Shown: positions 8,922-25,735, counted from the stretch's first letter. The stretch is DNA of 64,000 bases from Desulfatiglandales bacterium (GCA_963666345.1 OY762721.1:2880001-2944000), one strand, 5' to 3'. Notes: a model not told the origin generated them from the letters alone. Numbers and translations are program-made.

Positions 8922-10502
8922 TCAGTCATCAAGCAGTAGCAGGGGAATCCAGGGCATATCTTTATTATCCGGTTTATCCTTGAAAAAGGCCTTTATGTTG
9001 ACATTGGTGTTACCATAGTAGTCGGTTACATCCTCGAAATCACTTCCATTGTAACTTATAAAGCTTTCTCCGGGATTTGCGCTTGTTACCGCATAGCCGC
9101 CTATGGGTCTTTCAATAGGGATAGGGGTTTTGTTTTCTTCTCCTGGGGGGTCTGTGAATTTTATCACCACGCAAAACGGATCATTTCCCGATACCTCTAC
9201 CGGTGCCGGCAGCAGGACCGTATAGTAGCCCCTGTATTCAACCTGACCGGATACGGCGGTACCCAGCAGAGGGTCTGAAAAATGAACATCAGGGGAGACT
9301 CCCGTCATGGTATCATATATCTGTATCTCATAGTCCATCCCTGATGTGGGGGCATAAAGGCCTATTCCGGTAATGGTTCCGTCCGCCGCCGGGGTAAAAC
9401 GATTCGCGCCCCAGCCGTCCCTCTGAGTGCCATAGCCGATGGTACCGGTCCATCCCAGGGGATCGTACTGAAGTATGCTGTCGAATGAAAGGAGGGAGTC
9501 ATCAGTGTCTTGATAATAGCCAAGCGATGTGAACCCTATACTCTCATCGTAATAAGACACGTAAAAGTAGCCGTCCTCCCCCCATGCGTCTCCCCAGGAA
9601 TTTCTGACTATAAAGGCGCCCGGCTGGGAGGCGCCCGTAACCTTATCATCGTCCCAGCCCACGATGGTGACGCAGTGGTTGGAGTTATTGAAGGAATCGG
9701 TCGGATCATCGTAATAAAAGGTATGGTCTGTTTCGTTGAAATTTCCCTCAGACCATTCTATTGAAGTATGAAGCGCCCCATGCCCGGAAATTGCATCCTT
9801 TATATAGTCGATGCTTGAGGCCGGGTCTGAGCGTACCGGCAGGAAAACTCCATTGTCTATGTATCGAGTAGGATCGCAGCCGGTACAATAGGAGGTGTCC
9901 GTGCAGGCCTCGGCGTCATATGGATCATCCGTCTCCATTACTGGGCCCGCATACCTTGCAAAATAGGCCAAACCCATTTCCATGTTACCGCCGTCATCCG
10001 GGCCGTATGCGAATCCATGGGCGCGGCTCAGATGCTTTTCGGAATAATCGTTTGAATTATCTGAAAGGCCGAACTCGGCCTTAAGGTGGCTTTCCACTAC
10101 ACCGTAGGTAGTAAATGCCCAGCAGGTATTACACTGCCCCTGATTCCTTACAGGCGTAAGGAGGCTGTCTGACGTGTCCCCGTCGCCATCTGGGTCCCTC
10201 ATGTCATATTCGGCGTCACCGGCTGAAGCCCCACACGGTGCGAGTCCCTCAATTTCAAGCTGTGTGTCGGGCTCATGAATTTCAGGTGCGATCGGGCCGG
10301 GTATGTATCCAAGGCCGAAACCGTTTTCAGCCGCCCCGTATGCCCTTAATAGAAGATCTTCCTCTTTCTGATGGAATGCCGTAAAGGCCGGGTTAACAGG
10401 GGCGAGCATTGATTCCGGCCTCTGGGCGCAGGCATTCTGTAAAGCCATCGGTGCTATGGTGCCTGAAATAAAGTAAAAGGCGCAAAGGATAATCAGTCTC
10501 AT
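8922..10502 (-). CDS. Secreted papain-family (C1A) cysteine protease with lectin-like C-terminal domain; tail MPWIPLLLLDD
   Basis: Signal peptide; VRNQGQCNTCWAF (catalytic Cys), NHCVTIVGWDD (His), RNSWG (Asn); QYDPLGW start of the accessory domain. Confidence 0.9.
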   Translation of the reverse strand: MRLIILCAFYFISGTIAPMALQNACAQRPESMLAPVNPAFTAFHQKEEDLLLRAYGAAENGFGLGYIPGPIAPEIHEPDTQLEIEGLAPCGASAGDAEYDMRDPDGDGDTSDSLLTPVRNQGQCNTCWAFTTYGVVESHLKAEFGLSDNSNDYSEKHLSRAHGFAYGPDDGGNMEMGLAYFARYAGPVMETDDPYDAEACTDTSYCTGCDPTRYIDNGVFLPVRSDPASSIDYIKDAISGHGALHTSIEWSEGNFNETDHTFYYDDPTDSFNNSNHCVTIVGWDDDKVTGASQPGAFIVRNSWGDAWGEDGYFYVSYYDESIGFTSLGYYQDTDDSLLSFDSILQYDPLGWTGTIGYGTQRDGWGANRFTPAADGTITGIGLYAPTSGMDYEIQIYDTMTGVSPDVHFSDPLLGTAVSGQVEYRGYYTVLLPAPVEVSGNDPFCVVIKFTDPPGEENKTPIPIERPIGGYAVTSANPGESFISYNGSDFEDVTDYYGNTNVNIKAFFKDKPDNKDMPWIPLLLLDD

Positions 10503-10578
10503 AAAAGAAAACCTTATTATGGATGGATGGAAAAGCCCCGGTAAATGGATGCCGGTATCTTGGAAACATTAAAATTTA

Positions 10579-10920
10579 GGATCATCTCCCGATTAGTTGG
10601 TGTTAAACAGGGCTAAGCAATGAAATCCTTCTTATTTAAGCGGCTGAGAGCTAGTAGGGTTCAAGGATTCCAGTGTTCCATTGAAACGGCGGATAAAACC
10701 CCTAAAGCATTACAAAGATTTAAAGCTGTTGCAGAAATCCTGCGAATGCCTTTCAGGTATATAGAATAAATGAAAAATTCTCAAATAACATGAGGTACAC
10801 AGAGATCGATAAATTGCTAAAAATGCCTATAAAGTCTTTAGAAAACAAACACTTGACCCCTTGACCCCTTGACCCCTTGGGTCCTTGGACCCTCTTGGCC
10901 AACTAAGTTGGAGAAGGACC
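10579..10920 (+). mobile_element. MITE family A copy 2
   Basis: Same TIRs as copy 1; perfect 8-bp TSD aaaattta on both sides. Confidence 0.88.
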
Positions 10921-11324
10921 AAAATTTAAAATGCCTGTTATCGGATTTTCAGGTAAAGGAAAAAGGTATTTTGCGGAATAGTATAGACATTCCCTCAGAA
11001 TCTGTCACCACAGAAAATGTGAAATTTGTCTGTTTAGACCCCTGTCTGCCGTTTCTTAGGAAATCTTTATCCTGGTGGATATAGATATGGGCCACAAAAA
11101 AGAAAACGGGGCGGTCGTATGTCATTTAACCTGTCGATATATCAATAAAGAAAATTGGTGCTACCTGATTTTGTTAAGTGTTTTATAGGCATTAATTTGG
11201 TATATATTCCAAATTAATTTTAAAGAAGATAAAAGAGGTGCTGTTGACATTTAATGAAGAGTTGTGATACCTGATAATATCTCAAAATATTCATATAGTT
11301 TCCAGCATTTGGTTTTAATCACAC

Positions 11325-11400
11325 TGTGAAAAAGCCAAACCCCGAGCAATCGAGGGACGGAAAGCCACGGGTCTTGAAAAGACAGCCGGGTTGCCGAAAG
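11325..11400 (+). ncRNA. c-di-GMP-I (GEMM-I) riboswitch, copy 1
   Basis: GCCAAACC...GCAA tetraloop...GGGACGGAAAGCC.CGGGTCT...AGACAGCCGGGTTGCCG matches the GEMM-I consensus. Confidence 0.9.
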
Positions 11401-11419
11401 GTGGCCCGGCTTTTTGTTT
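11385..11419 (+). terminator. Riboswitch expression-platform terminator
   Basis: gccgggttgcc-gaaa-ggtggcccggc + tttttgttt; overlaps the aptamer 3' strand. Confidence 0.85.
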
Positions 11420-11972
11420 GTGCGCCCGGCAGGGCGCACTCACTTGGAGGTGAAAGTCCTCTACACGCCCGTCAGGGGGAAGTGTTAGCTGAACGGCAAC
11501 TGCGTCACCGTGAGGTGAGGTGGGGAGGAAGCTGAAGGCAAAGCGCTGGCCCGACGAACAGGAATCGCATATTAGGCGGTCATGCCGGATGAGGAGGCAA
11601 ATATCTCTAAAGTCCAATACCTGACCGGAAGGCATGGGCGTATATGCGGCGGGCATAAGCGTGAAGGTGGGTGTGCATTACCCGGGGAGACCTCATGGTA
11701 TGCCGTGAGTGCTACTTCTGCCGAGAGGCAGAGGGATGTGCCGTGAGGAGTCAGCCGAGGCCATAGTAGTCCAAACGACCATGGGTGAAGGGCCGAACCT
11801 TATGTTAACGACAGGGTCTTTAGCTGTGCGAGCGAGAGTAGACATAGAAGGTTATGCTGAGATGCATGGCGCTACAGGGAAGTGTACCGGGCGGAACCCG
11901 GGAGTGGTCTTTGGTAGTGTGTCAAAGCGCCCATTGGCGGAAGGGAACCCTGTTGACGAGCAAGCGCAACTG

Positions 11973-13235
11973 ATGGAGCGAGTGGTCGAACGCTCGAACA
12001 TGCAACAGGCCTATCGACGTGTGAAGGTAAATAGAGGAGCACCAGGAGTTGATGGTATGAGTACGGATCGTCTTGGTGCATATTTATGTAAACACTGGCC
12101 TGAGATCAAGCAACGATTGTGTAAGGGCAGTTACAAACCGATGCCAGTAAGGCGAGTACAGATTCCAAAGGCAAATGGTGGAGTCCGCCTACTTGGCATT
12201 CCAACTGTATTAGATAGACTTATTCAGCAGGCATTGCATCAGGTGTTGAGTCCATTGTATGAGCCGGGATTCTCGGAGCACAGCTATGGATTCCGTAAAG
12301 GTCGCAGTGCTCATCAGGCGGTGGTTGCAGAGCAGAAGTACCAGCATGAGGGCAAACGCTGGGTAGTTGATATGGACCTGGCGCAGTTTTTCGATGAAGT
12401 AAATCACGACAAACTGATGTCTCGATTAGGAGCGAAGGTCAGGGATCAGAGGGTAAAGGGTTTGATCCGTAGCTACCTTCGAGCTGGGGTGCTTCTGGGC
12501 GGAGTGGTGTCAGTTCAGAGCAAAGGAACGCCGCAAGGCGGTCCTATCTCTCCCCTGCTGTCCAACATTGTGCTGGATGAACTGGATAAGGAGTTGGAGA
12601 AGCGAGGCCATAGGTTCTGCCGCTATGCCGACGACTGCAATATCTACGTAGGCAGTCGTCGAAGCGGGGATCGTGTAATGGCGTCTGTGACACGTTTTGT
12701 TGAGGAGAGGCTGAAGCTGAGGGTAAACAGGCAAAAGAGTGCTGTAGCAAGGCCATGGCAGCGCAAATTTCTTGGTTATACGTTCAGCTGGCACAGGAAG
12801 AGTCGAATCCGTGCAGCCGCAGAATCGATAAAGCGGCTCAGAGCTAATTTGAAGGCGTTGTTCCGTAAGGGCAGGGGCCGCAATGTAAAGCGGTTTATCC
12901 AGGAGGAACTCAACCCTGTTGTCAGGGGATGGAGTAACTACTTCAGACTGTCGGAGTTTCTAGGATTTGCAAGGGAACTTGATCAGTGGGTTCGTCGTCA
13001 CCTTAGATGTATTCTATGGCGACAATGGAAGAGACCCTGGAAACGGTTTCAGATGCTTATGGATTTGGGACTGTCTGAGCAACAGGCCGCTTATTCTGCT
13101 TTTAATCAGAGAGGGGCATGGTTCAATGCAGGTGCAGCGCATATGAACCGGGCCATACCCAAACGTTACCTTGATCAGCTTGGACTAGTATCTACGCTCG
13201 ATACACTGCGCAGGCTTGGAGGAAAATTAACTTAA
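11973..13235 (+). CDS. ltrA: Group II intron reverse transcriptase/maturase, no endonuclease domain (start may be further upstream; frame open from 11709)
   Basis: GAPGVDG, RLLGIPTVLDRLIQQA, SYGFR, GTPQGGPISPLLSNI, RYADD, LNPVVRGWSNYF. Confidence 0.95.
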   Translation: MERVVERSNMQQAYRRVKVNRGAPGVDGMSTDRLGAYLCKHWPEIKQRLCKGSYKPMPVRRVQIPKANGGVRLLGIPTVLDRLIQQALHQVLSPLYEPGFSEHSYGFRKGRSAHQAVVAEQKYQHEGKRWVVDMDLAQFFDEVNHDKLMSRLGAKVRDQRVKGLIRSYLRAGVLLGGVVSVQSKGTPQGGPISPLLSNIVLDELDKELEKRGHRFCRYADDCNIYVGSRRSGDRVMASVTRFVEERLKLRVNRQKSAVARPWQRKFLGYTFSWHRKSRIRAAAESIKRLRANLKALFRKGRGRNVKRFIQEELNPVVRGWSNYFRLSEFLGFARELDQWVRRHLRCILWRQWKRPWKRFQMLMDLGLSEQQAAYSAFNQRGAWFNAGAAHMNRAIPKRYLDQLGLVSTLDTLRRLGGKLT

Positions 13236-13297
13236 GGAACCGCCGTGGTACGTGGACCGTATGCCCGGTGGTGTGAGCTTACTATTACCCATAAGTA

Positions 13298-14743
13298 TCA
13301 TAGCTGATCCGCCAGTTTCAAGCCTTCACTCAGATCTGCAAGACGCTTCCATCCTCTCCATAATGTGATAGTACCAGGAGGCCCATCGTTTTTTCGGGCT
13401 AGGTGACCTCCTAGTTTTGCAATCCAGATGACTACAATACCAATGGTTGGTGGCTTTTTCGGTATAGGTTTGTTTATATTTGCATGCAGGAAAAGGGCTT
13501 TCCACTCCTGATCGGTAAGGAAAGTTGAGCAGGGTGTTGTCGGATCGGTACGAGCGATCAAGGTAATCATGAAGATCCTCCAAGCTACAATGCTCATAAC
13601 TGTGAGGTATTTTGCCAGCCGATCGGCATGCCCTAGCCGACATGATTCGACCCTAAAACCGGACTTTAAGACCTTGAAGTACATTTCAATTCGCCAGCGT
13701 AAGCAGTACCACAAAACTTTTTCATAAGCATCTTCATACGACATGACTGGAAGATTGGTCAGGAGCATCCACTCGATAGCTTCCTCGCTATCAGGCGGAT
13801 TTGTTTCTATAACATAGACTGCGTGCATCTCAATGTCTGGAAGTTTCTCAGTGCTGTGCCTGATACTATTGCGGGGAGGATTGAGGGTAAAAGAGCCGAA
13901 ACGTACAGAGACCATCGCGGTGCGTGCTTCCCTTTCTTTGGCATGCTTCGACTTAGACCTTTTCGCGATTTCTACCACGTAAGAACCTGAATCAGGCTGT
14001 TTTCGCATATTCTCCCAAAGTTTTTCGACATTCTTTTCTGCATAACGGGATTTACGATTTATAATCCTATCTACGTTTGCTCGAACGAGGACAGGGGCAT
14101 TGATTTGATGGCTACGCATAAAGAAATCGTATAGATCGGCTTCTCGATCGCAGACTGTGACGATTCGGGTACAACCTGTTAATTCCTTAGTGTTTTCTAA
14201 TGCCTCAAGCCATCTATAGCTTTCCTTTTCCTCTATCGGGAGATTGGCGTGAGGTTTTGCTTTTTTGTTATCCTTTTTCCGGAGTTTCCGTGAAAATATT
14301 TTTTGATCCAACAGTCCGAGTGGGAGGCCTTTAGTTGTTACAGCCAGACATGTATGCATTATCAGGCCGTTGGAATAGATATTTTTCACGTTTTTACCCT
14401 TCTTTAAAGACATCTTCCCGAGTCCTTCGGTCTTCGGATGGTCAGTATAGACAAAATAACTGGTATCTTGGAGTGCAAGAACCGTTTTGTGTTCCTTAGT
14501 ACGCTGAGCTGTTTTACATCGGTGGGCCGCCAACATCTTACCAACCTCAACTTTGTTGTTTTGAAAAAAACGATAAGCAGCTTTGGTCTCTGCCCAATCC
14601 ACGCATGCTTGGTTGATGGGGCTCTCTGGAGCATCCGAAAATCTATCACACAGCTTAATCAGCCTTGCATCGAGTCTTTTATCTCCGAGCTTGACCTCTG
14701 CAAACTCTTCCGCCGCCCAACTTGATCTATTTTTTGGGTTCAT
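13298..14743 (-). CDS. IS4-family DDE transposase
   Basis: WAAEEF..LGDKRL, QDTS, VCDREAD, YCLRWRIEMYFKVLKSG (YREK), GPPG..LWRGW. Confidence 0.95.
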   Translation of the reverse strand: MNPKNRSSWAAEEFAEVKLGDKRLDARLIKLCDRFSDAPESPINQACVDWAETKAAYRFFQNNKVEVGKMLAAHRCKTAQRTKEHKTVLALQDTSYFVYTDHPKTEGLGKMSLKKGKNVKNIYSNGLIMHTCLAVTTKGLPLGLLDQKIFSRKLRKKDNKKAKPHANLPIEEKESYRWLEALENTKELTGCTRIVTVCDREADLYDFFMRSHQINAPVLVRANVDRIINRKSRYAEKNVEKLWENMRKQPDSGSYVVEIAKRSKSKHAKEREARTAMVSVRFGSFTLNPPRNSIRHSTEKLPDIEMHAVYVIETNPPDSEEAIEWMLLTNLPVMSYEDAYEKVLWYCLRWRIEMYFKVLKSGFRVESCRLGHADRLAKYLTVMSIVAWRIFMITLIARTDPTTPCSTFLTDQEWKALFLHANINKPIPKKPPTIGIVVIWIAKLGGHLARKNDGPPGTITLWRGWKRLADLSEGLKLADQL

Positions 14744-14824
14744 TGAACGCCTCCCATTAAAAGTTGACATTTGTATAGTAGACGTATTATATACGTCTAC
14801 TATTACGATAGGGAGGTGTCAAGG

Positions 14825-15136
14825 ATGAATCCTGTCAAAAAACGAAATGATCTTTTAAAAAAATTAGCCCAATTCCCTGAATTTGTTCGCGGGTCGATTA
14901 CAAGCGTTTGTTCCACATGCAACAGAGCGAGATGCATATGCTCAAAAAAGTCATCCCGGATGGCATATCGGCTGACCTATAAGGATAGCCAACAAAAAAC
15001 ACGTAGCGTTTATGTTAAAAGAGACCAGTTAACCAGAATGCGAAAGATGATCGCCAATTATGCCCGACTAAGGAAACTGATCGAGCAACTTGTTGAGGCA
15101 AATATTGAGGCTTTTAAGGAAGAAACTCGGCGATAA
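14825..15136 (+). CDS. Small IS passenger protein, Cys-cluster (DUF6788-like)
   Basis: RBS gggagg; RGSITSVCSTCNRARCIC; lies inside the IS TIRs, divergent from the transposase. Confidence 0.7.
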   Translation: MNPVKKRNDLLKKLAQFPEFVRGSITSVCSTCNRARCICSKKSSRMAYRLTYKDSQQKTRSVYVKRDQLTRMRKMIANYARLRKLIEQLVEANIEAFKEETRR

Positions 15137-15403
15137 AATCGTCTAGACTTATGGGTAATAGTAAGGTGGTGTGAGAGAGGGAGGTCGCGAGGCCTCCCCC
15201 TACTCGATTGTGCTTTGGAGATGTATGTTTTTCGAATAACGCTGAATCACCTTTAACAAAACGGATTAATCCAAGGCAAATAACGGCGTATATAATAGGT
15301 CTCTAATGCTAATAGGCATAAAACAGCAATACAGAGTGGATGTTTGGATCTAACTGAATCGAAGGACTAATCCACTGGCATGCCAGTGGCATGAATCGGG
15401 AGA

Positions 15404-18400
15404 TTGAAAATGGTACGTGTTAGGAAATGGATGCTGTTATCACTTTCAGCCGTAATTTTGTTCTCTCTAGTGTTCTATGTGAATGCTGAACCTGTAGCGG
15501 AAAAAATGGCTCAGAGCGCAGCGCAGTCTTTCCTTCATAAAGAGCAGAGAACTCTGCCCAAAATGGTGACTAAGGCAAAGGCTGAGCATTTTGTCAGCGA
15601 TATGGCTAGTGGTCTTACTATTGGAGAGCTTCATCCTATAAAAGATAGCCATGGTGAAATACTTGCATATATTCAGGAACTGGAACCTGAGGGATTCATC
15701 ATTACTTCAGCCGATGATAGCATAAGGCCGGTTCTTGGTTTTTCGTTCTCAGGAGAATTCTCTTATGATGCACACAATCCATTGCTTAATCTTATAAAGA
15801 CAGATACCAAAACCCGCCTAAGACTTTTGTCTTATGGTGGGGAAAAGGCGCAAAATATGATTAAGTTGAGCGGAGAACAATGGATAGCCGATACTTCATA
15901 TACGTTAGAACTGGACACATCCCTACTTTCAAAGTCAATCTCAACCCTGTCAGAGACTATATGGGGTGACGAAAACGGTTACATTCAGACAGAATGGAAT
16001 CAAAGAAATCCCTGGAACGCACAATGCCCATATAAAGTCGAAGACGATATCGGTGGCTCTAGACGACCTGTTGGGTGTGTAGCAACGGCAACAGCACAGA
16101 TAATAAACTTCTGGGAATACCCAAAGAGTGTGTCAATTTCTGATAATGACTATATAAATATAGATGGCACATCGCACTACATAAGTACATCTTCAGGTTA
16201 CGGGCTACCATCAGTGTCAGAACTTAGAAGCGAAATGGGATCACTCCTTTATGGAGCTCCCGATACTGATGAACAAGCTTATTTGTGTCTTACCGCAGGG
16301 CTTAAACTTCATATGAACTACAGATCTAAAACAACTCAGCATGGCGGTATTGAATACGGCTCTGCAGCTAGTACCTCAAGTGTTGGAGAAGTCCTCACGA
16401 GCAATTTTTTGTATGGAAGTGCCGATATGGATAAATGGGGTAATGTTTGGTCGGAAAATTACAGCACAATTGTTGATAATATGAAAAATGCTCAGCCTGT
16501 TCAAATCGGAATCAAGAATTCAGGAAAGACAGGCGGGCATTCCGTAATCGTAGATGGATATCGTGAGGGGGACCATTTTTTTCATGTAAATTTCGGTTGG
16601 TCAGATTCTGGTAATTCTAATACATGGTACAATATTCCAAACTTTGAGCCACAACCATATTGGGAGGATTATTATTATGATGTAGTGCACACCGTTGTAT
16701 TCAATATTGCCAAATACCAGGGGTGGAACCAATATGGTGCAAATGCACAAAATACATTTGGAACTATCTATGCGGCACCATATAAGAAAAACGAAATCAA
16801 ACAGAAATGGCGTGCTACCTGCCCATCTGAATTTGCCTTCAGGCATATCGCGATCGGAACTTCCAATCATATTTATGCCGCTGTTTCCCCTAACGCTTCT
16901 ACCGGCCACTCGTTTATATATGTAATAGATCAATTTGGTACTAAATTAAAAGAAATCGAAATAAATCGGGACGGCAAAATTGATTTTATGTGCCAAGATG
17001 AAGCCGGAGACCTATTTGTAGCAGTTGAGGATGGATACATCTATCGAGTTGATCCAGAAACAAGTTCAGCAGTTCAGATTTTTGAAGAACCTTATGGGGG
17101 ACAAATCAATACGCTCAAGATTGATAAAGATGGTTGGCTTTTCGCTGTTACGTTTGATCGCGTTTATGCCCTTACACGGTCTGGCACCTCTCGTTGGCCC
17201 TCCCCATTTGTCGTACCGTCAGGATCAATGTTCATGGGGAGTCGGTCGATTCCAGCGATTGACGTGTCCCGGCAGCGAATTTATGCTACTTACTACAACA
17301 GCACCACGGATCATGCTTACCTCGTGGCGATAAATAGGCTAAACGGGGAGATCGTGCAGGTACGAGATTTTGCGGCAATATCAGTGCCACTTATGAAAGT
17401 TCCTTCCATTGGCCCTGATGGTACGGTCTACATCGGTATGCCAGGCATACTATATGCTTTGAATCCGGATGATTTTCTTGGCACTCCTAAATGGACAAAG
17501 TCACTGCTTATTAGCCATACGCCTGCGGTAGGCCGCGATGGTACTTTATATTTCCCTTACTGGGAGCAAATTGCCGATATATGGTACAATAAATTGGGCG
17601 CTTTTGATCCATCAAATTGTGCGGAGCGATGGAGCATACCATTTCAACTAGACACCTCAGAAGAGTCTATATTCCAACCCTATATCGGCGGTAACGGTGT
17701 TGTTCTTTTCACAATAGAGCACGACGGATCACCTAAAACATACACTCTGCATGGATACAAGGACAACGGCTCAAGCTCTGAGGAACTATGGGATTACAAT
17801 GCAGGAAGCTCTGGAGGTAACTATGCATTCGGCCCTGGTCGGACAGTGTATGCATGGGGAATGACAGGTTTGGCGAAAACAATCTATGCGCTTACCGATG
17901 GGGAAATTGGTGACCCCTACGGAGCAGGGATGGATTTTGAGAACAATAATACTCCTATTCCTGCATCTAATCCGAGCCCTGCAGATGGTGCCGTGGAGCA
18001 ATCCTTCACAAGTGTTCAACTTTCGTGGAGTTGCTCTGATCCTGATGGGCATGATCTGAAATATGATATTTATGGCTGTGCCTTAGTGGAGGGAGAAGAA
18101 GCGGCTATGGTGCCTCTGGTAACTCAGTTAACTGAAAATTCATACACTTTGTCGAATTTGCAAGGAGGAACGGAATATCTTTGGATGGTCGTTGCTACTG
18201 ACGGGCAGGCCATTGCAGAAGGACCTACATGGAGTTTTACAACAGAAATAGAAGATTTATGCCCCGATGATCCAAACAAAACAGAACCCGGGATATGCGG
18301 CTGTGGAGTACCAGATACAGATACAGACGGAGATGAAACGGCCGACTGTATAGATGCCTTTCCAAGTGATCCAACTGAATGGGCTGATAACGATAATGAT

Positions 18401-18616: not shown

Positions 18617-18623
18617 GCAGTAC

Positions 18624-18676: not shown

Positions 18677-18681
18677 TTATC

Positions 18682-19599
18682 CTAATCTTCCAAGAGCAAC
18701 TGTAACCATGGCATAAATTTAGGTTCAGGCGGATCAACCGGAAGGCTCAGATCAGATAAATCCGGGACCCCATCTCCGTCTGTATCATTGGTATCCTGAA
18801 TTATAACCAGCCACTTCTGGTAGTCCGGCCAGGAAGTATCAAGATCACCATCAGAAAGCTCAACTAATGCAGTATATGTATTGCCATCTCGTGAAAAAAT
18901 TGTGGCAGGGAATGATTCCACCGCATTTATTCTGATGTTATCTTCATCTATTATATCGTAAGTGGCTTCATAAGTTTCTTCAGATTGCATCAAAGTCGAA
19001 GTATATGCAACTGTGATACTGTTACTTGTTTTTGAGTAATCAAGAGTGCCAGATAGTTCTCCAACAGTGTAATTTCCTGACATACTCATATCACCGGCAT
19101 AATAGGTATTATGCGCCGTCAAACTGTATGTTCCTATAGCGGAATTTGCAGCTTTGCTAAGAGATCCGCTTATGAGCCCGCCTGTATTATTTTGGCTGTA
19201 CCAATTCCCTGTGATATTTTTGTTAAACGGCATTGATTTTTCACAGACATCATCAATACCATTACCGTTAACGTCATCAGAACCAAGATTAAGGGAAATT
19301 TCACCGTAATCACCGACAGTATAAGTATCTACTATCATTAAATAATCTGTTTTATATAGACTTCCAACCTTTTTTAATTCCTGACTGTAATAATAATATC
19401 CGTTATCATAATCATATAACGGCATAGAGTATCTATTACCGTCATAAGTAGTAAAGTATGTTTCAAGTAGATGGTACTCTATATAAGAGGAACATTTTTC
19501 AAGGCTGATGGAATACGAAATCCCGCCAATACTTGCAGTATTGGCAAACGCTGAAGACGTGACAATTAAAACCGCGAATACCAAGCTGAAGTATTTCAT
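18682..19599 (-). CDS. Secreted hypothetical beta-rich protein; tail MPWLQLLLED
   Basis: Signal peptide (SSAFA); Tyr/Ser/Thr-rich; DTNDTDGDGVPD Ca-binding motif before a Pro linker and the tail. Confidence 0.8.
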   Translation of the reverse strand: MKYFSLVFAVLIVTSSAFANTASIGGISYSISLEKCSSYIEYHLLETYFTTYDGNRYSMPLYDYDNGYYYYSQELKKVGSLYKTDYLMIVDTYTVGDYGEISLNLGSDDVNGNGIDDVCEKSMPFNKNITGNWYSQNNTGGLISGSLSKAANSAIGTYSLTAHNTYYAGDMSMSGNYTVGELSGTLDYSKTSNSITVAYTSTLMQSEETYEATYDIIDEDNIRINAVESFPATIFSRDGNTYTALVELSDGDLDTSWPDYQKWLVIIQDTNDTDGDGVPDLSDLSLPVDPPEPKFMPWLQLLLED

Positions 19600-19960: not shown

Positions 19961-20050
19961 TGTGAAAAAGCCAAACCCCGAGTGATCGAGGGATGGAAAG
20001 CCACGGGTCTTAAATAGACAGCCGGGTTGCCGAGAGGTGGCCCGGCTGTC
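19961..20050 (+). ncRNA. c-di-GMP-I (GEMM-I) riboswitch, copy 2
   Basis: Near-identical to 11325-11410: gccaaaccccga-gtga-tcgagggatggaaagccacgggtct...agacagccgggttgccg. Confidence 0.85.
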
Positions 20051-20310
20051 TGTTGCTCAATGCCATATCTTTAATTTCTTAATAGTATCGATTCAATGCT
20101 TTAGCGGTTTTATCCGCCGTTTCAATGGAGCACTTGAATCCTTGGCCCCTTGAAACCGGGAACCCGCTGCGAAGCAGTGGGACTGAGCGAAGCGCAAGCG
20201 GAGCAAAGAAACCGGGAACCCGCTGCGAAGCAGTGGGACTGAGCGAAGCTAAGCTAAGCGAGGGCGAAGAATCCTACGAGTTATCAGCCGCTTAAATAAT
20301 AAAGATTTCT

Positions 20311-20756
20311 GGATCATCTCCAAAAGAGTTGGTCTAAATGAAGGATTCGAGGGTTCAAGGGGCCGCGGGTTCGAGTGAAAAGCTTAAAGATCATAGGCGG
20401 TTAAACGTTATGCAAAAATCGTATACACCTTGTTTGCATATGTATAAAGAAACGAAACGTCTTTTTAAAGATGAGCAATAGGGTCTTATCCGAGGTTTCC
20501 ATACCATGGAATATCGTCTGAGAATATGTGAGATTTCTCTATATTGCATATGGTTCAGGCTGTGAACCGGAAATCCTGATCCATGATACCGGGTGAGTCG
20601 GGTTATCCTTGAAACTGGGAACCCGCCCCGAGCTTGTCGAGGGGTGGGACTGAGCGAAGCGTAAGCGGAGCAAAGAACCCTTGAACCCTTGAACCCTTGA
20701 ACCCTTGAATCCTGGAACCCTTGGACCCTCTTCGACAACTAAGTTGGAGAAGAACC
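20311..20756 (+). mobile_element. MITE family A-related copy 4 nested inside copy 3
   Basis: TIRs ggatcatctccaaaagagttgg / caactaagttggagaagaacc; perfect 8-bp TSD agatttct. Confidence 0.88.
20378..20610 (+). pseudogene. Decayed four-helix-bundle (23S rRNA IVP-like) gene
   Basis: Hand translation across stops/frameshifts: LKDHRRLNVMQKSY..CLHMYKETK.LFKDEQ*GL / VSIPWNI / EYVRFLYIAYGSGCE. Confidence 0.7.
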
Positions 20757-20876
20757 AGATTTCTTTATTCAGCCCTGTTTAACACCAACTAATCGGGAGG
20801 TGGTCCTAAAAAGGTAATTGAGTAGATATTGGTGGCTGTGTATAACGGAAATATTCAGTATCTACAACCACTTAAA

Positions 20877-20948
20877 CTAACGTTCACCCATAAAACAAGG
20901 TTTATGGTTTAAGGCTGTCAGCAATCAGCTTTCAGCTGTCAGCAAAAC
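20877..20948. repeat. MITE/repeat family B, partial copy
   Basis: tcagcaatcagctttcagctgtcagc heptamer array; homologous to the reverse complement of 26410-26489. Confidence 0.6.
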
Positions 20949-21041
20949 TGATGTTTACCCCATTTAGTGGACACCCAGAAAAGATAAATGTAAAATTAAC
21001 ACATAGGAAGTGTGTCCATGGAAAATGGGAGAAGACGCCGC
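20949..21041 (+). mobile_element. IS3-family left-end remnant
   Basis: TGATGTTTACCCCATTTAGTGGACAC resembles the IS3 IRL, followed by a short orfA-like start (MENGRRRR) that breaks off. Confidence 0.55.
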
Positions 21042-21346
21042 AGGCCCTATGATCGGTAAGAATTGTGTGATAGGCTCGACCCCATGATTCCCGATGCATC
21101 CGGTGACATATAACCACTGTCAGGCCGGTTCCCAAAAATTTTTGTCGGATGCTGATTCCTTGAATCAAAATGATCCCGGGCCTCGGGCGTTGCCTTGGGC
21201 CCTTATATTATTCGGAGAATAGCCCACTTTTTAAGAGGCCATCATTTTTAAATGGGCACGGCTCGCAATGATATGGGCAGAGCAAGGATTTCTTGAATAG
21301 CGGGTAAATCAACGAAATCATAAATCCACATTAAGAGGTCGCAGCC

Positions 21347-24300
21347 TTGCGCAAGTATACCGTTTATCTCTGTCTTGCTATGTTGATGCTGCTGTTTGGG
21401 GCGGAAATCGTTTTTGCCGCCCTGAAAAGCGCTGAAACAAGTGTTCCGGGCCAAAAGGCTGTGATAGTGGCCGGCACGGAGGCGAGCGTACTCATCCGTT
21501 CGCCTGAGACAGAGCATCTGTTTGACGCAAGCGACACCGAAAGCACCGGGGTCATAATCATTCAACCCGGTCCCGCAGCTGCGCCCGGAGATTCCTTACC
21601 AGGTGAAGACTATGCATTGTGGGACTGGAGTGGTTCGATATCTATTCCTGACGGTCCGGACGGTTCGTGGGTAGGCGTCAACAACACACCGACATCGCCG
21701 CCCGATGGGTGCCAGGTAACGAAAATCACAATTCGCCACGCGGTGACCCACACCTATATCGGTGATTTGGAGTGCAAGGTATATAACGACAGCGGGCACT
21801 CATGGATGGTTCGTGACAATGAAGGGGTCTCTGCGGATGACTTTGATGAGACCGAGACTGAATACACGATCTTTGACGGGGATAATCCCAAACAGAACTG
21901 GTCCTATAGTGTTCGCGACACGGTCGAAGACGATACTGGTACCCTCGATATCGTGCAGCTATATGTTTACTATGAAACCACGGAGCCGGACATCCGAGTT
22001 GAGCCCACGACGCTCAATTTTAACGACAACCCTGAGCCCTCCATCTCTTCGTTCAAGTCGACACTTGCTCCGCTGGAGTTTGCAGCTACGGCAAGCGACG
22101 GTTCTCTGTCTGTAACCATCGAAAGCGGCGCCTTGAACATAAACCCCGCCGGTGATTATGTGGCCTTAAGCATGGATGGCTATGATACGCGCATGTCGCC
22201 CGGCGATCCCATGCTCCCTTTGCGTGTCGTGCGTATGGCCCTGCCGCCGGACGCCGATCTCGATACGGTGACTGTCTCCCATTCAGTCCTTGCCGCAAGA
22301 GTACTGGACTCTACCTATTCGGTTGCCCCTGCACCTCCTATGGCGACATGGGAGGGAACCCAGACGATCATCGATTGGGGCGAGGGCAAGGACATCGTCG
22401 ACGGCCGCAACATGAACGTCTACGGCTCGGACGCCTTTTTCGTGGCCGAATCCGTCAAACCCGAGCCTTACAGCCGGTTGCGTAAATGGAAGATGGCCCG
22501 GTTTTTCTTTTATCCTGTCCAATATAACCCGGTCACCGGCAAACTGCGCGTTATCGATAGTGTCAAGGTCGATATTACGTACGACCTTGAGTCCGAAGCT
22601 AAAAGTGCGCTGAACTCCTCGTCGGCAGATGACGGCATGGAAGCCGCGGCTTCCCTACTCATCGATAACTATGACCAGGCCAAGCCCTGGTACCTCTATG
22701 AAGCTAAACTAAGCCCATCGGTTGCTTACGATTACGTCATCGTAACCACCGAGGACATTTTCGATAACGCTTCTTACCTCGATGACTTTGAGACCTTTAA
22801 GGAGAACCAGGGTTATAACGTGGCGACTGTCACAGAAAGCGGTTTCTACACATCGGTCGGTGGTTCGAGCAGTGACTCGGGCTGGGGCGGAGGCACGGGC
22901 GATGCGGCGGCCGAGAACATTCGATCCTGGCTCCAGGGCAACTACTTATCCCTGGGAATCGACTATGTCCTGCTTATTGGCGATCCAAGCCCCGCCTCCG
23001 GGGACGTGCCGATGAAAATGTGCTGGCCGCGTAAGGGTGCTACGATCGAACCGGACTATGATGAAGCGCCCACGGATTACTATTATGCTGAACTTACCGG
23101 AAACTGGGATCTGGATGGCGACGGAGATTATGGGGAATACGACGGCGATTTCGGCTCGGGTGGCATCGACACGAATGTGGAAATCTATGTCGGCCGCATT
23201 CCCGTTTACTCCTCATCCATGACCGCCCTCGACGGCATCTTGCAGAAGACCATAGACTATGGAACCGAGTCAGGTGATCTTGGCTGGCGTGAAAAGGTTC
23301 TGCTTCCCATGGAGCCGTCCGATTCGTCAACTCACGGCTGGCCCCTGGCCGAAAACATCCGCAGCGACTACGCCAATCCGGCGGGTTGGGATTCCTATCG
23401 CATCTATGATGAGGATTACGACAAGAGCCCAGAGCAAACGCCGTGCAACATGACCAACGTCCAAAACGAATGGCAGAACTTCTACGGGCTTGTTACATGG
23501 TGGACACACGGCTCGGAGACCAGCGCTGCAGACGTCTTTAGCAGCAGCCTGTGCGGCAATCTCGATGACGATCATCCAGCCTTCACGTTCCAGTGCTCAT
23601 GCAACAACGGCTATCCTGAAAATACCGGCAATCTCGGCTACTCGTTGCTCGAAAACGGTGCCATCGGAACGATTTCCGCAACACGCGTTTCGTGGTACTA
23701 CGTAGGCGACTCAAACTGGGAAATGAGTGGCGGCAACTCGTACATGGCCGACAGGTACTCGGAAAAGATCATCAACACGGATCGATCCGGTAAGGCCCTC
23801 TTCGATATGAAGATGGCAGCATCTCACAGTGATATGGACCAATGGATGAATTTTCTGGTTTTTAATCTCTACGGCGATCCCGCTCTGAAAATTGACGACA
23901 CCGGCGGCTCGACTCCACCCGGAGATGGTGAATTCGGGATCTACAACGACGGAACGGATACGCTTGAAGTCAGCAGCATTACTAAAAGCAAGAGCTGGCT
24001 GCTCCTTGATACCGCAGGACCTCTTACGATCTCAGAGGGCGAAAACCATATTGTTTCTGCTTCGGTGGATTGGGACCAGGTTCCGGCAGGAGGGGATTCC
24101 GATACCATTCAGGTCAATTCAAACGATCCTGACGAGGGGACGGTCAACGTCGCCGTGACTGCTATTCAGCCTCGCAGTTTATCGGTCTCATCGAGCAGCG
24201 GCGGCTTGGTTTCACAGCCTGGCGAAGGTTATTTTGAATACACATTGGGGGCTGTAGTCTCTCTTGTGGTATTGGCAGATTCTGACTGGCACTTTGACCG

Positions 24301-25735
24301 GTGGACAGGGACTGCGGTTGATGCGGGCAGGGTAGGGGACCCGGATTCCGGGGCTACGACGGTCACGATGGATGGTGACTATACCCTTTATGCAAACTTT
24401 GCCATTGATCAGCATGAGCTGCAGATATCGTCAAGCGCAGGGGGATCGGTTACGACGCCGGGTGAGGGCGAGCTGCATTACGATCACGGGACAGTGGTAA
24501 CGATTGAGGCGACAGGTGATGCCAACTTTCATTTTGTAAACTGGACGGGAACGGCGGTTGACGCGGGCAGGGTAGGGGATGCGGATTCCGGGGCTACGAC
24601 GGTCACGATGGATGGTGACTATACGCTTTATGCGAACTTTGCCATTGATCAGCACGCGCTGCAGATATCGTCAAGCGCAGGGGGATCGGTTACGACGCCG
24701 GGTGAGGGCGAGCTGCATTACGATCACGGGACAGTGGTAACGATTGAGGCGACAGGTGATGCCAACTTTCATTTTGTAAACTGGACGGGAACGGCGGTTG
24801 ACGCGGGCAGGGTAGGGGATGCGGATTCCGGGGCTACGACGGTCACGATGGATGGTGACTATACGCTTTATGCGAACTTTGCCATTGATCAGCACGAGTT
24901 GCAGATATCGTCAAGCGCAGGGGGATCGGTTACGACGCCGGGTGAGGGCGAGCTGCATTACGATCACGGGACAGTGGTAACGATTGGGGCGGCATCTGAT
25001 GCCGATTTTCATTTTGTAAACTGGACGGGAACGGCGGTTGACGCGGGCAGGGTAGGGGATGCGGATTCCGGGGCTACGACGGTCACGATGGATGGTGACT
25101 ATACGCTTTATGCGAACTTTGCCATTGATCAGCACGAGTTGCAGATATCGTCAAGCGCAGGGGGATCTGTTACGACGCCGGGTGAGGGCGAGCTGCATTA
25201 CGATCACGGGACAGTGGTAACGATTGAGGTGGCATCTGATGCCAATTTTCATTTTGTAAACTGGACGGGAACGGCGGTTGACGCGGGCAGGGTAGGGAAC
25301 CCGGATTCCGGGGCTACGACGGTTACGATGGATGGTGACTATACCCTTTATGCGAATTTTGCCATCGATGATGAAGATGAAGACGGCGTTCCGGATTTAA
25401 CTGATAATTGCCCGGTGACACCGAATTCGGATCAAGCGGACTCTGATGGAGATGAGGTCGGGGATGCCTGCGATCAATGCCCTGATGATTCCAACAAGAG
25501 TAATCCAGGCGTTTGTGGATGTGGAGAACCTGATACTGACAGCGAACCTGATGGAATGGTTGATTGCTGGGAATGGGAATACGGTCTTGATCCTTCAGTG
25601 AATGACGCTGGAGAAGATATTGATGGGGATGGATTTTCAAACCTCATAGAATTTCAGCGAGGAACAGATCCCGGTGATTATTATTCTACCCCTCCAATCG
25701 TTATGCCCTGGATACCACTGCTTTTGGGTGATTAG
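21347..25735 (+). CDS. Secreted gingipain-family (C25) cysteine protease with P-domain, C25 propeptide, five InlB-B-like repeats and TSP3-like stalk; tail MPWIPLLLGD
   Basis: Signal peptide; HTYIGDL (proprotein convertase P-domain), PGDPMLP and YPVQYNPVTGKL (propeptide), YVLLIGD, TDYYYA, VGRIP, THG (His), CSC (Cys), NLYGDP. Confidence 0.88.
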   Translation: MRKYTVYLCLAMLMLLFGAEIVFAALKSAETSVPGQKAVIVAGTEASVLIRSPETEHLFDASDTESTGVIIIQPGPAAAPGDSLPGEDYALWDWSGSISIPDGPDGSWVGVNNTPTSPPDGCQVTKITIRHAVTHTYIGDLECKVYNDSGHSWMVRDNEGVSADDFDETETEYTIFDGDNPKQNWSYSVRDTVEDDTGTLDIVQLYVYYETTEPDIRVEPTTLNFNDNPEPSISSFKSTLAPLEFAATASDGSLSVTIESGALNINPAGDYVALSMDGYDTRMSPGDPMLPLRVVRMALPPDADLDTVTVSHSVLAARVLDSTYSVAPAPPMATWEGTQTIIDWGEGKDIVDGRNMNVYGSDAFFVAESVKPEPYSRLRKWKMARFFFYPVQYNPVTGKLRVIDSVKVDITYDLESEAKSALNSSSADDGMEAAASLLIDNYDQAKPWYLYEAKLSPSVAYDYVIVTTEDIFDNASYLDDFETFKENQGYNVATVTESGFYTSVGGSSSDSGWGGGTGDAAAENIRSWLQGNYLSLGIDYVLLIGDPSPASGDVPMKMCWPRKGATIEPDYDEAPTDYYYAELTGNWDLDGDGDYGEYDGDFGSGGIDTNVEIYVGRIPVYSSSMTALDGILQKTIDYGTESGDLGWREKVLLPMEPSDSSTHGWPLAENIRSDYANPAGWDSYRIYDEDYDKSPEQTPCNMTNVQNEWQNFYGLVTWWTHGSETSAADVFSSSLCGNLDDDHPAFTFQCSCNNGYPENTGNLGYSLLENGAIGTISATRVSWYYVGDSNWEMSGGNSYMADRYSEKIINTDRSGKALFDMKMAASHSDMDQWMNFLVFNLYGDPALKIDDTGGSTPPGDGEFGIYNDGTDTLEVSSITKSKSWLLLDTAGPLTISEGENHIVSASVDWDQVPAGGDSDTIQVNSNDPDEGTVNVAVTAIQPRSLSVSSSSGGLVSQPGEGYFEYTLGAVVSLVVLADSDWHFDRWTGTAVDAGRVGDPDSGATTVTMDGDYTLYANFAIDQHELQISSSAGGSVTTPGEGELHYDHGTVVTIEATGDANFHFVNWTGTAVDAGRVGDADSGATTVTMDGDYTLYANFAIDQHALQISSSAGGSVTTPGEGELHYDHGTVVTIEATGDANFHFVNWTGTAVDAGRVGDADSGATTVTMDGDYTLYANFAIDQHELQISSSAGGSVTTPGEGELHYDHGTVVTIGAASDADFHFVNWTGTAVDAGRVGDADSGATTVTMDGDYTLYANFAIDQHELQISSSAGGSVTTPGEGELHYDHGTVVTIEVASDANFHFVNWTGTAVDAGRVGNPDSGATTVTMDGDYTLYANFAIDDEDEDGVPDLTDNCPVTPNSDQADSDGDEVGDACDQCPDDSNKSNPGVCGCGEPDTDSEPDGMVDCWEWEYGLDPSVNDAGEDIDGDGFSNLIEFQRGTDPGDYYSTPPIVMPWIPLLLGD
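24173..25372 (+). repeat. Five tandem 240-bp (80-aa) coding repeats
   Basis: Units start at 24173, 24413, 24653, 24893 and 25133; units 2-5 nearly identical at DNA level (HELQISSSAGGSVTTPGEG...YTLYANFAID). Confidence 0.95.

Follow-up and report, generated by a model that had tools for sequence, protein, structure and literature searches.

The genome of a sulfate-reducing bacterium assigned to the Desulfatiglandales carries, in the window (the whole stretch of DNA analysed, 64,000 nucleotides; GCA_963666345.1 OY762721.1:2880001-2944000), an island at positions 8922-25735 in which papain-, streptopain- and gingipain-type proteases lie together and adjoin a type II secretion system (T2SS) operon. 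As part of an overall explanation to which we give slightly less than even confidence, we read the region as an accessory island that has two tRNA genes on one side and, on the other, the end of a T2SS operon that is core in the family; the island's products would be Sec-exported cysteine proteases of families C1, C10 and C25 and one exported protein without a known family. The features are listed below by position in the window and strand.

8321..8483, + strand: tRNA-Gly(gcc), tRNA-Cys(gca); the putative accessory island has its left edge here (Rfam tRNA matches; aragorn)
8922..10502, - strand: C1A papain-type protease with a lectin-like domain (Cwp84-like), 526 aa, here C1 (Pfam; PDB 4d59)
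8925..8957, - strand: tail of the C1 protease, last 11 residues (motif reading and tail alignment)
11325..11421, + strand: predicted GEMM-I (c-di-GMP-I-GGC) riboswitch and hairpin, original leader of C10a (RF03167, 70.2 bits; hairpin, fold and leader alignment)
11418..15210, + strand: group II intron, end coordinate approximate, with an RT/maturase ORF at 11709-13235 (RF02001, RF01998; TIGR04416, 409.7 bits; junctions)
13278..15165, - strand: IS4 element, 1888 bp, with transposase (13298-14770) and DUF6788 ORF (14771-15136)
15404..18616, + strand: C10a, 1070 aa, with I69 propeptide, C10 protease, propeller-like region, fn3, Cys/Asp-rich TSP3-type stalk and tail LPFIPLLLGD (Pfam; SpeB alignment; homologues)
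18682..19599, - strand: 305-aa exported protein without a known family; it has a short Asp stretch and ends in the tail MPWLQLLLED
19961..20035, + strand: second predicted GEMM-I (c-di-GMP-I-GGC) riboswitch, leader of the C25 gene (RF03167, 66.7 bits)
20036..21346, + strand: 1.3-kb leader from riboswitch to C25 start, full of dispersed repeats (313 blastn matches in the genome)
21347..25735, + strand: C25, 1462 aa, with P-domain, C25 propeptide, gingipain-fold protease, five InlB B-repeats, TSP3 stalk and tail MPWIPLLLGD (Pfam; alignment; model; Foldseek)
25806..26192, - strand: YidD-like ORF, 128 aa, between the island and gspE (Pfam YidD, 50.1 bits)
26499..40988, - strand: complete T2SS operon (TIGR02533 and TIGR02517 over cut-off; Pfam)

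The N-termini of all four island proteins (C1, C10a, the 305-aa protein and C25) look like signal peptides. For the 305-aa protein there was no Pfam or NCBIfam match and no usable match in the ESM Atlas. The IS4 element shows inverted repeats together with a 10-bp target duplication; two further copies in the genome are 100% identical to it. In Desulfosarcina alkanivorans, tblastn likewise places a YidD-like ORF after gspE.

A reading made from the sequence alone had placed the C1A, C10 and C25 families in one island and named Pfam assignment as a check; Pfam finds all three, and the further claim of intact catalytic motifs is supported, with the C1 and C10 residues aligning with solved relatives and the putative catalytic histidine and cysteine of C25 invariant in homologues. 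The C1 protein matches Peptidase_C1 (PF00112, 99.7 bits against a cut-off of 20.7) and Lectin_like (128 bits) in Pfam, and its Q121, C127 (in QGQCNTCWAF), H276 (in NHCVTIVGWDD) and N301 (in NSW) are in register with C. difficile Cwp84 (4d59, E 1.5e-25, residues 113-506), an entry that has Ala in the catalytic Cys column. In C10a, Inhibitor_I69 (PF13734, 38.1 bits against 25) and Peptidase_C10 (PF01640, 103.3 bits against 26) were found together with an fn3 match below cut-off, and C225 and H379 align with the Cys and His motifs of SpeB (1pvj, E 3.4e-14; VGCVATATAQI and GGHSVIVDG in C10a against TGCVATATAQI and GGHAFVIDG in SpeB). C25 combines P_proprotein, Propeptide_C25 (PF08126, 37.8 bits), Peptidase_C25 (PF01364, 134.9 bits against 23), five Flg_new_2 repeats and a TSP_3 match below cut-off. 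A phmmer search of C25 against the PDB gave no match, gingipains included; all 23 aligned homologues share the candidate dyad residues H721 and C752, and in Foldseek the AF2 model (pLDDT 87) matches RgpB (1cvr, E 3.8e-18, TM 0.64 on the target), Kgp and the RgpB prodomain (4ief_C, E 3.6e-12). Zymogen propeptides are kept in C10a and C25, and an I69 propeptide was not found in the paralogue C10b by the Pfam/NCBIfam profile scan. To judge from these alignments, the island proteases look catalytically competent.

All four proteins share the ending [MLF]P[WF][IL]xLLL[GLE]D-stop, which reads PWIPLLLLDD in C1, PFIPLLLGD in C10a, PWLQLLLED in the 305-aa protein and PWIPLLLGD in C25. This tail of about 11 residues (Met/Leu-Pro-Trp/Phe-Ile/Leu-x-Leu-Leu-Leu(-Leu), one or two acidic or Gly residues, stop) has 3-5 Leu and an acidic end, and contains no membrane helix, basic cluster or Cys; no Pfam or NCBIfam model matches it, and a literature search did not find the sequence in papers. 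Of the six ORFs that bear it genome-wide, four belong to the island and lie no more than 17 kb from gspE. The earlier claim that an Asp-rich stalk plus the PWIPLLL tail occupies the position of a type IX secretion system (T9SS) C-terminal domain (CTD) holds, as to the pairing of stalk and tail, for only part of the set: all four proteins have the tail, and the stalk was seen in C10a, in C25 and, as a short stretch, in the 305-aa protein, with none in C1, where the tail MPWIPLLLLDD directly abuts the lectin domain. Because C1 lacks a stalk, the stalk does not belong to the putative signal.

Membership among T9SS cargo was rejected: neither PF18962 nor TIGR04183 matches any of the four island proteins (Pfam, NCBIfam), and the absence of T9SS genes, proposed earlier as a check, is supported, with GldK reaching at best 72.9 bits in the genome against a cut-off of 350 and SprA giving no match in a search that is weak, its control having matched nowhere. 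A PEP-CTERM/exosortase assignment was rejected on the 3-5 Leu and acidic end of the tail and on the lack of a PF09721 match in the genome; exosortase likewise had no match in 9 of the 14 tail-bearing genomes of the family, some of them incomplete. GlyGly-CTERM/rhombosortase was rejected as well, since the tail sequence does not fit and TIGR03902 reaches only 28.1 bits in the genome against a cut-off of 84.

The proposal that the protease modules had been re-addressed from T9SS fits C10 and is not supported for C1 and C25. The nearest C10 homologues outside the genome (P0003-P0006; identity 52-56%, query coverage 86-89%) have the I69-C10-propeller-fn3 body in common with C10a and end in a T9SS CTD (PF18962, ...KKMVLLK) where C10a has stalk and tail; PF18962 is listed for 19 of 50 C10 matches, and the tail is confined, among those 50, to the two copies from this genome. 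An anchor swap in C10 is supported by these comparisons of predicted proteins. None of the 120 listed C25 homologues has PF18962; the nearest (73% identity) is source-named Desulfococcus sp., and further ones with a named source belong to Armatimonadota and Chloroflexota. For C1, PF18962 occurs on only 2 of 120 listed homologues, and the nearest come from Desulfobacterales metagenome-assembled genomes (MAGs), two of them sharing the architecture and tail of C1; vertical inheritance with the same architecture had been named beforehand as the case against re-addressing, and C1 is such a case. The tail may direct its bearers to another secretion route.

Among 105 genomes of the same family, a DNA pattern for MPW[LIV]xLLL gave 37 matches against 2 with the reversed control, and about 14 genomes (at least 14) carry the tail, as do other, mostly Desulfobacterota, genomes. 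In 19 of 30 loci read, a long ORF has the motif as its end or close to it: 15 of these motifs are terminal, 3 precede an acidic/Pro extension of 17-18 residues, and 1 is internal. In a wider contig scan, true tails made up about 23 of 121 sampled loci among the matches listed, 18 of these 23 in records titled Desulfobacterota or deltaproteobacteria, and one MAG has at least 14 consecutive genes with tail variants in one island. In related Desulfobacterota the tail closes exported hydrolases and adhesins that are mutually unrelated (passengers include GH18, GDSL lipase, Kelch, beta-helix, metalloprotease-like and DUF11 proteins). By a crude hydropathy test, 20 of the 24 tail ORFs whose 5' end is complete have a hydrophobic, signal-peptide-like N-terminus, and a choice-of-anchor Q domain (over cut-off) directly precedes the tail in 2 of 23 scanned tail proteins.

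This distribution bears on whether the ending has a function at all. The island could encode ordinary nutritional proteases with a functionless linker or cassette remnant spread by paralogue recombination, and the similar Cys/Asp stalks of C10a, C10b and C25, the three promoter-riboswitch leaders as near-identical duplicates, and the wealth of mobile and repeated DNA in the island would agree with that. We nevertheless regard a remnant as very improbable, because the tail is found on unrelated passengers in several orders and on the stalk-less C1, its codons differ synonymously among copies with the peptide kept, 15 of the 19 ORFs read that contain the motif finish with it, and it replaces known anchors after the choice-of-anchor domain as well as the T9SS CTD in C10 homologues. 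The tail is a real, portable and undescribed ending, and looks like a novel address label on exported proteins.

Thirty-two aligned tails give the consensus KAMPWIPLLLL, mostly with a basic residue and then Ala, Ser or Gly before MPW; the rows were picked by a motif regex, so that conservation within the motif is partly by construction. Such a junction would suit a removable C-terminal pro-piece, cut between [KR]-[AS] and M-P-W by a periplasmic or surface protease, which might hold the enzymes inactive or membrane-associated and would have no routing role. Zymogens with N-terminal propeptides among the cargo are consistent with it, as are the proteins that run past the motif (by 5 to 18 extra residues, or with the motif internal), which is expected of a processing site. 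The four proteins in the window, however, have D-M, Y-L, F-M and V-M at the junction and no K-A, no candidate processing enzyme recurs beside tail genes, and the regex-based choice of rows also counts against it; we consider the pro-piece distinctly unlikely.

The adjoining T2SS operon comprises gspE with an MshEN N-domain (29.2 bits against a cut-off of 23.1), gspD, a TPR protein, a GspA-like AAA+PG-binding protein, gspC with a PDZ domain, two proteins without a known family, gspL, K, three pseudopilins, gspG and gspF. GspD scores 518 bits against 351 (TIGR02517) and GspE 686.8 against 630 (TIGR02533), and Pfam finds T2SSC, T2SSF, T2SSG, T2SSK_1st, T2SSL/PilM/PilN and N_methyl. The tail could be a linear recognition tag for the T2SS itself, bound for example by the GspC PDZ domain or another periplasmic part and selecting proteins for outer-membrane transport, which we judge to be unlikely. 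Pointing towards it are the closeness of four of the genome's six tail genes to gspE, the PDZ domain of the local GspC, and an 88-aa tail protein directly downstream of a gspD-like gene in one relative (G015). PMC12369372 describes the PDZ domain of V. cholerae EpsC as needed for secretion of one substrate, VesB, but places the PDZ-dependent information in an Ig fold of VesB and not in a terminal peptide. G015 is also the only case of T2SS genes near a tail among 19 tail loci of family genomes, the other 18 lacking such adjacency; in D. alkanivorans and MAG G123, tail sites and GspD matches lie at distant coordinates or on separate contigs, and no protease genes were found at 9 gspD-gspE loci in relatives, with ~14 kb fetched downstream of gspE. 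With GspD over cut-off in 86 of 105 family genomes, the T2SS is core in the family and the tail occurs in about 14, so that their co-occurrence is uninformative. Nor does the window's GspC-PDZ type track the tail: it was not found in tail-bearing G005 and G015 and is present in many tail-less genomes. Since some tails are extended or internal, a free C-terminus right after the acidic residues is not obligatory, which counts against PDZ-type binding of such a terminus. Finally, one tail protein is encoded on an Anaerolineales chromosome that gave no match to the secretin GspD. If the T2SS does read it, the tail would count as a linear secretion signal, a rare thing for a system with unsolved substrate recognition.

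Covariance models predict three leaders in the genome to be cyclic-dinucleotide riboswitches, placed by Rfam in the GGC variant (RF03167, 70.2, 66.7 and 71.8 bits against a gathering score of 59; RF01051, 69.1, 63 and 70.9 bits against 35). They are the only GEMM-I (c-di-GMP-I-GGC) riboswitches in the genome, precede C10a, C25 and C10b (3 of 3 before tail-bearing genes), and have leaders ~95% identical across ~125 nt. In the C10a leader, the aptamer (11325-11399) overlaps a terminator-like hairpin (11384-11411), which is followed by a T-run; from the use of the 3' part of the aptamer by this terminator-like stem we infer ON switches, a clear T-run being missing at two of the three hairpins. 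The 5' end of the group II intron (GTGCG) comes immediately after the T-run, and the IS4 element interrupts the intron's 3' part. C10a is separated from its riboswitch by this intron with its IS4 and is probably uncoupled from its switch, because both elements occupy its leader. A search of 19 tail loci in relatives gave no riboswitch, and cysteine proteases are 0 of 23 riboswitch-downstream genes sampled in relatives, so that coupling of the riboswitch to cysteine proteases may be private to this genome.

The explanation that we favour overall, while stopping a little short of an even chance, is that of Sec-exported, tail-sorted, riboswitch-controlled cysteine proteases on an accessory island. 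High levels of a cyclic dinucleotide (c-di-GMP or a close relative) would let transcription of the protease genes proceed; the proteins would pass through Sec to the periplasm, fold there and cross the outer membrane by the T2SS, a route suggested because it is the only general one found here for folded periplasmic proteins and its ATPase has an MshEN domain of the c-di-GMP-binding type. The tail would serve as a sorting or retention handle acting after Sec export, since it is too short for a membrane span and acidic where stop-transfer anchors are basic, and would retain the enzymes at the cell surface or matrix, or position them there, a role that may be likened to those of the T9SS CTD, PEP-CTERM and MYXO-CTERM on homologous passengers. 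A likely use would be the remodelling of, or feeding on, a proteinaceous matrix in a sessile state. More tentatively still, the tail may represent an undescribed class of C-terminal sorting signal in Desulfobacterota, helix-free and post-Sec, either a linear outer-membrane address (possibly read by the T2SS) or a self-inserting surface anchor, combined here with a riboswitch regulon of only C10 and C25 proteases.

Several known systems resemble parts of this arrangement. The gingipain fold and prodomain of the C25 model are like those of PorU-dependent T9SS cargo of Bacteroidota (RgpB/Kgp), and in the nearest C10 homologues PF18962 is joined to a body plan like that of C10a, with a C-terminal add-on after the last passenger domain in both; the T9SS CTD is, however, a beta-sandwich of ~80 residues, in contrast to the 11-residue tail here. 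In GlyGly-CTERM/rhombosortase cargo such as VesB of V. cholerae, too, a C-terminal tag is found on a secreted protease, and the organism is a diderm that has a T2SS. The GlyGly-CTERM signal is tripartite, with a Gly/Ser motif, a membrane helix and a basic end. Helix and basic end set it apart from the tail, with only 3-5 Leu and an acidic end. Surface retention of VesB after T2SS export, as reported in PMC6219818, PMC13393428 and PMC12369372, would parallel the outcome proposed here. PEP-CTERM/exosortase and MYXO-CTERM/myxosortase are also portable C-terminal signals on many unrelated exported proteins of one lineage; like them the tail can come after choice-of-anchor Q domains, and several of its passengers are similar to myxosortase-dependent metalloproteases (matches below cut-off), but it has no membrane helix, Arg/Lys cluster or Cys, and the genome gave no exosortase match. 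Over both domains, the best solved relative of the C1 protein is the C1A and lectin-like Cwp84 of C. difficile (4d59, 4ci7). In the C1 protein the lectin-like domain is followed by the 11-residue tail. Cwp84 is anchored, in a monoderm, by cell-wall-binding repeats. The secreted metalloprotease ZmpI of C. difficile is under c-di-GMP riboswitch control. A cyclic-dinucleotide riboswitch before an exported protease has a precedent; here the genes under putative control encode C10 and C25 cysteine proteases, and Rfam places the riboswitches in the GGC variant of GEMM-I.

The DNA lies in a closed, 4.16-Mb genome with 48% G+C, and the nearest homologues are named by their sources as Desulfococcus, Desulfobacteraceae and Desulfobacterales. 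Four genes with exported products are found between tRNA-Gly/tRNA-Cys (8321–8483) and the last gene of an operon for a type II secretion system (T2SS), in an island where the G+C fraction ranges from 0.40 to 0.545. The features of this region, with two further genes from elsewhere in the genome, are as follows.

Features of the protease island, the adjoining operon and two distant genes (window coordinates unless marked as genome)
8922–10502, minus: C1 protease with lectin-like domain
11325–11399, plus: c-di-GMP-I-GGC riboswitch (Rfam)
11418–15210: group II intron, starting with GTGCG directly after the hairpin and T-run of the first riboswitch
13278–15165: IS4 element (1888 bp; inverted repeats; target duplication of 10 bp), inserted in the 3' part of the group II intron
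15404–18616, plus: C10 protease (C10a) with I69 propeptide
18682–19599, minus: 305-aa protein of no known family
19961–20035, plus: c-di-GMP-I-GGC riboswitch (Rfam)
21347–25735, plus: C25 protease with P-domain, C25 propeptide, five InlB-type B-repeats and TSP3-type stalk
25806–26192, minus: YidD-like ORF
26499–28193, minus: T2SS ATPase GspE with an MshEN-type (c-di-GMP-binding type) N-domain
33549–34445, minus: 298-aa protein without family match over cut-off, in the T2SS operon between gspC and gspL
34524–35039, minus: 171-aa protein without family match over cut-off, in the T2SS operon between gspC and gspL
genome 3583803–3586670: second C10 protease (C10b), tail LPFLPLLLED
genome 1965001–1966509 (5002–6510 of the locus read, L002), minus: 502-aa exported protein with three near-identical repeats of ~150 residues, ending in ILLLLLGD

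That three cysteine protease families (C1, C10 and C25) share one island, as the sequence-only reading had proposed, proved correct by Pfam, by alignment and by a model of the C25 domain. The C1 enzyme aligns with Cwp84 of C. difficile over both the protease and the lectin-like domain (4d59, E 1.5e-25), with the catalytic Gln121, Cys127, His276 and Asn301 in register. C10a matches SpeB (1pvj, E 3.4e-14) and has its Cys225 in the motif VGCVATATAQI and its His379 in GGHSVIVDG. The C25 domain scores 134.9 bits with Pfam, and when it is aligned with 22 homologues both His721 and Cys752 prove invariant. Its sequence found no PDB match by phmmer, even at E 10, and a fold search was used instead of the sequence search. 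The AlphaFold2 model (pLDDT 87, pTM 0.89) matched RgpB (1cvr, E 3.8e-18), Kgp (6i9a, E 2.6e-13) and the RgpB prodomain (4ief_C, E 3.6e-12), which suggests a catalytic geometry as in gingipains. For the 305-aa protein, a search of the ESM Atlas returned nothing.

All four island proteins end in a similar stretch of about 11 residues (MPWIPLLLLDD, LPFIPLLLGD, MPWLQLLLED and MPWIPLLLGD), here called the tail. Genome-wide, only two further ORFs have an ending of this type, C10b and the three-repeat 502-aa protein, the latter being a sixth and more divergent bearer, so that the total comes to six cargo proteins. An Asp-rich stalk and the tail had been read as one unit; this does not hold for the C1 protease, where the tail directly follows the lectin-like domain without a stalk, and the tail is therefore a separate unit. 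Identity with a T1SS signal was rejected because all six proteins have N-terminal segments resembling signal peptides. The tail was matched by no Pfam or NCBIfam model, its letters were not found in the literature searched, and the same literature yielded nothing on C-terminal sorting of secreted proteins in Desulfobacter.

Among 105 genomes of the same family, the DNA pattern for MPW[LIV]xLLL gave 37 matches, versus 2 for a reversed control. In the 30 loci that were read, the motif closed a long ORF in 15, was followed by an acidic/Pro extension of 17–18 residues in 3 and was internal in 1, the other 11 being unrelated short frames; at least 14 of the 105 genomes carry the tail. A wider scan of genome contigs with AMPWxxLLLL returned at least 121 loci, with about 23 true tails among the matches listed, as judged by reading (an automatic filter gave 19, of which 2 were false, and missed those cut by contig ends). 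Eighteen of these listed tails come from records titled Desulfobacterota or deltaproteobacteria, two of them from Desulfosarcina alkanivorans PL12, and the remaining five from Anaerolineales (2), Balneolales, a Rhodoferax MAG and a Paceibacterota MAG. Six MPW tails each were found in D. alkanivorans and in one deltaproteobacterial MAG, G123. This MAG has an island (G123:C5:26000-56500; loci L198 1–19608 and L199 1–10531) in which at least 14 genes in a row encode exported proteins that close with the tail or with degenerate variants such as TPWIPLLIME, GVHLLLLDD and NSWIHLLLLAN; among them are a GDSL lipase, several beta-helix proteins and one protein resembling glycosylhydrolases.

Alignment of 32 distinct tails gives the consensus KAMPWIPLLLL, after which come one or two residues of D, E, N or G; since the aligned tails were chosen by regular expression, the invariance within the motif is partly by construction. 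Codons vary among copies while the peptide stays constant, which argues for selection on the protein. The passengers are unrelated to each other (GH18 with BACON, GDSL lipase, Kelch propeller, beta-helix, metalloprotease-like, DUF11 and TSP3 adhesin-like proteins), and a choice-of-anchor Q domain over cut-off precedes the tail in 2 of 23 proteins in an NCBIfam scan. A hydrophobic N-terminal segment was seen in 20 of the 24 tail ORFs with complete 5' ends, by a crude hydropathy measure that leans upward because the best start was picked. Used as a protein query, the last 80 residues of C10a produced 13,192 matches driven by the TSP3-type stalk (the best stretches lie mostly in query residues 1–70), and this search is uninformative for the tail, with a tail-like end in 2 of the best 150 matches and a third regular-expression match (P0404) that has no tail. 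The motif MPW..LLLL(D/S)(D) also occurs internally with a further domain behind it (L040 in G092:C382, L088 and L118), and there it might indicate either a site of processing or a gene fusion. Taken as a whole, the tail is a candidate for a new, helix-less C-terminal signal that occurs mostly in genomes titled Desulfobacterota.

The sequence-only reading had implied an origin of all three proteases in the type IX secretion system (T9SS), with stalk and tail in the position of the C-terminal domain (CTD). For C10 this interpretation fits: the nearest proteins outside the genome (52–56% identical over 86–89% of the query) share its body and terminate in a Por_Secre_tail, PF18962 is listed for 19 of 50 matches, others closing with a membrane helix plus basic residues or with dockerin-like ends, and the tail is found among these 50 only on the two copies of this genome. 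In C10, the tail thus takes the place of the T9SS CTD. A T9SS origin does not extend to the other two families. PF18962 is listed for none of the 120 C25 homologues, 2 of which look T9SS-like by a crude end-motif regular expression; the nearest listed is 73% identical and named Desulfococcus sp., and others are named Armatimonadota, Dehalococcoidia and Vecturithrix. Of the 120 C1 homologues listed, 2 have PF18962 and 7, the query itself included, show the tail or its variant TPIIMLLLGE at the C-terminus, the nearest being Desulfobacterales proteins. Three C25 homologues (P0076, P0098 and P0100) end in (V/L/M)FLPLI(L/M/I)(K/R), a brief hydrophobic stretch closed by a basic residue, and short hydrophobic tails with charged ends may therefore be a wider phenomenon. 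The expected lack of T9SS genes was borne out for GldK, with no match over cut-off in this genome; SprA also had no match, in a search whose control gave a signal in no genome and which is hence uninformative. The view of the C-terminal module as an address unlike the CTD survives in spirit.

A complete T2SS operon (26499–40988, minus) begins 760 bases beyond the C25 stop codon, with GspD and GspE over equivalog cut-offs and GspC (with PDZ domain), F, G, K, L and pseudopilins present. The MshEN domain of GspE passes the Pfam cut-off (29.2 vs 23.1 bits) and falls 0.1 bit short for the NCBIfam c-di-GMP motif (37.9 vs 38). GspD is over cut-off in 86 of the 105 family genomes, which makes the T2SS core in the family. 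Of 19 tail loci in relatives, a single one (G015) has T2SS genes beside it. The GspC type of the window, which occurs in 3 of the 5 genomes with tails that were searched, is also present in many genomes without the tail, and one Anaerolineales chromosome has a single tail protein and no GspD match. An exosortase was found in 5 of the 14 tail-bearing family genomes and in none of the other 9, several of which are incomplete, so that the tail is independent of this enzyme; this genome itself gave no exosortase match and no rhombosortase over cut-off. By co-occurrence, the tail is associated with neither GspD, nor the GspC type of the window, nor exosortase, and all-against-all blastp of the ORFs at the 19 loci gave no recurrent candidate for a sorting enzyme. 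A complex prediction with GspC residues 151–282 and a 36-residue tail alignment gave no support and counts neither way. A link between tail and T2SS is not, then, supported by the comparative data. As the default, we infer that the T2SS is the export route, because the enzymes are folded and Sec-exported in a diderm without T9SS; the role of the tail is suggested by where it sits, by its portability and by the way it stands in for known anchors.

The island genes are absent from the ~14 kb fetched downstream of gspE at nine gspD-gspE loci of relatives (proteins 47–74% identical), so that the island is accessory and its location next to the T2SS is specific to this genome. A YidD-like ORF follows gspE also in D. 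alkanivorans (L228 4223–4591), in both cases outside the rnpA-yidC context that is usual for YidD.

Exactly three GEMM-I riboswitches were matched in the whole genome, the third ~65 nt upstream of the C10b start codon, and all three precede tail-bearing C10 or C25 genes: the entire GEMM-I set is devoted to tail-bearing cysteine proteases. The c-di-GMP-I-GGC variant was reportedly first described by Weinberg et al. in 2017. The three leaders are ~95% identical from ~45 nt upstream of the aptamer through the end of the hairpin. Since the hairpin (11384–11411, followed by a T-run that is weak in the other two copies) takes in the 3' part of the aptamer, read-through with ligand bound, i.e., an ON switch, is predicted. 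Such riboswitches are common in the family, being over cut-off in 48 of the 105 genomes. None of the genes behind 23 of the best-scoring copies encodes a cysteine protease; their products are sigma-54 activators and PAS kinases, one response regulator and one LuxR-type regulator, a flagellar rod protein, exported adhesin-like proteins and others without Pfam match. As Rfam also found no riboswitch at the 19 tail loci of relatives, the pairing of switch and protease looks private to this genome. The passages of PMC7266159 that were consulted make no mention of the GGC variant.

Mobile DNA has probably disturbed one of these pairs. Two further copies of the IS4 element, 100% identical to it, are present elsewhere in the genome. 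The island copy interrupts the group II intron in its 3' part, so that splicing has probably been lost, and C10a is probably uncoupled from its riboswitch. Dispersed repeats fill both the 1.3-kb C25 leader (20036–21346; 313 blastn matches in the genome) and the C1 leader (10503–11324; 70 matches), and ~165 bp upstream of both island riboswitches are duplicated (79% identity). One two-gene pair (proteins of ~505 and ~243 aa), presumably IS21-like, adjoins C10b (2826–5118 of its locus, L001) and recurs at window 55225–57517.

With six cargo proteins, an adjacent T2SS and a riboswitch regulon of three members linking secreted cysteine proteases with signalling by cyclic dinucleotides, this closed genome offers a defined system, suited to the question of how anaerobes remodel or digest a proteinaceous matrix in the biofilm state. 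To our knowledge, the way in which diderms choose folded periplasmic proteins for release or surface display is understood mainly for the T9SS CTD and for a small number of tripartite signals at the C-terminus. The tail, 11 residues long, helix-less and shared by dozens of otherwise unrelated hydrolases and adhesins in sulfate reducers and related bacteria, is a compact, graftable and directly testable candidate for such a signal, and on the C10 scaffold it stands in for the T9SS CTD.
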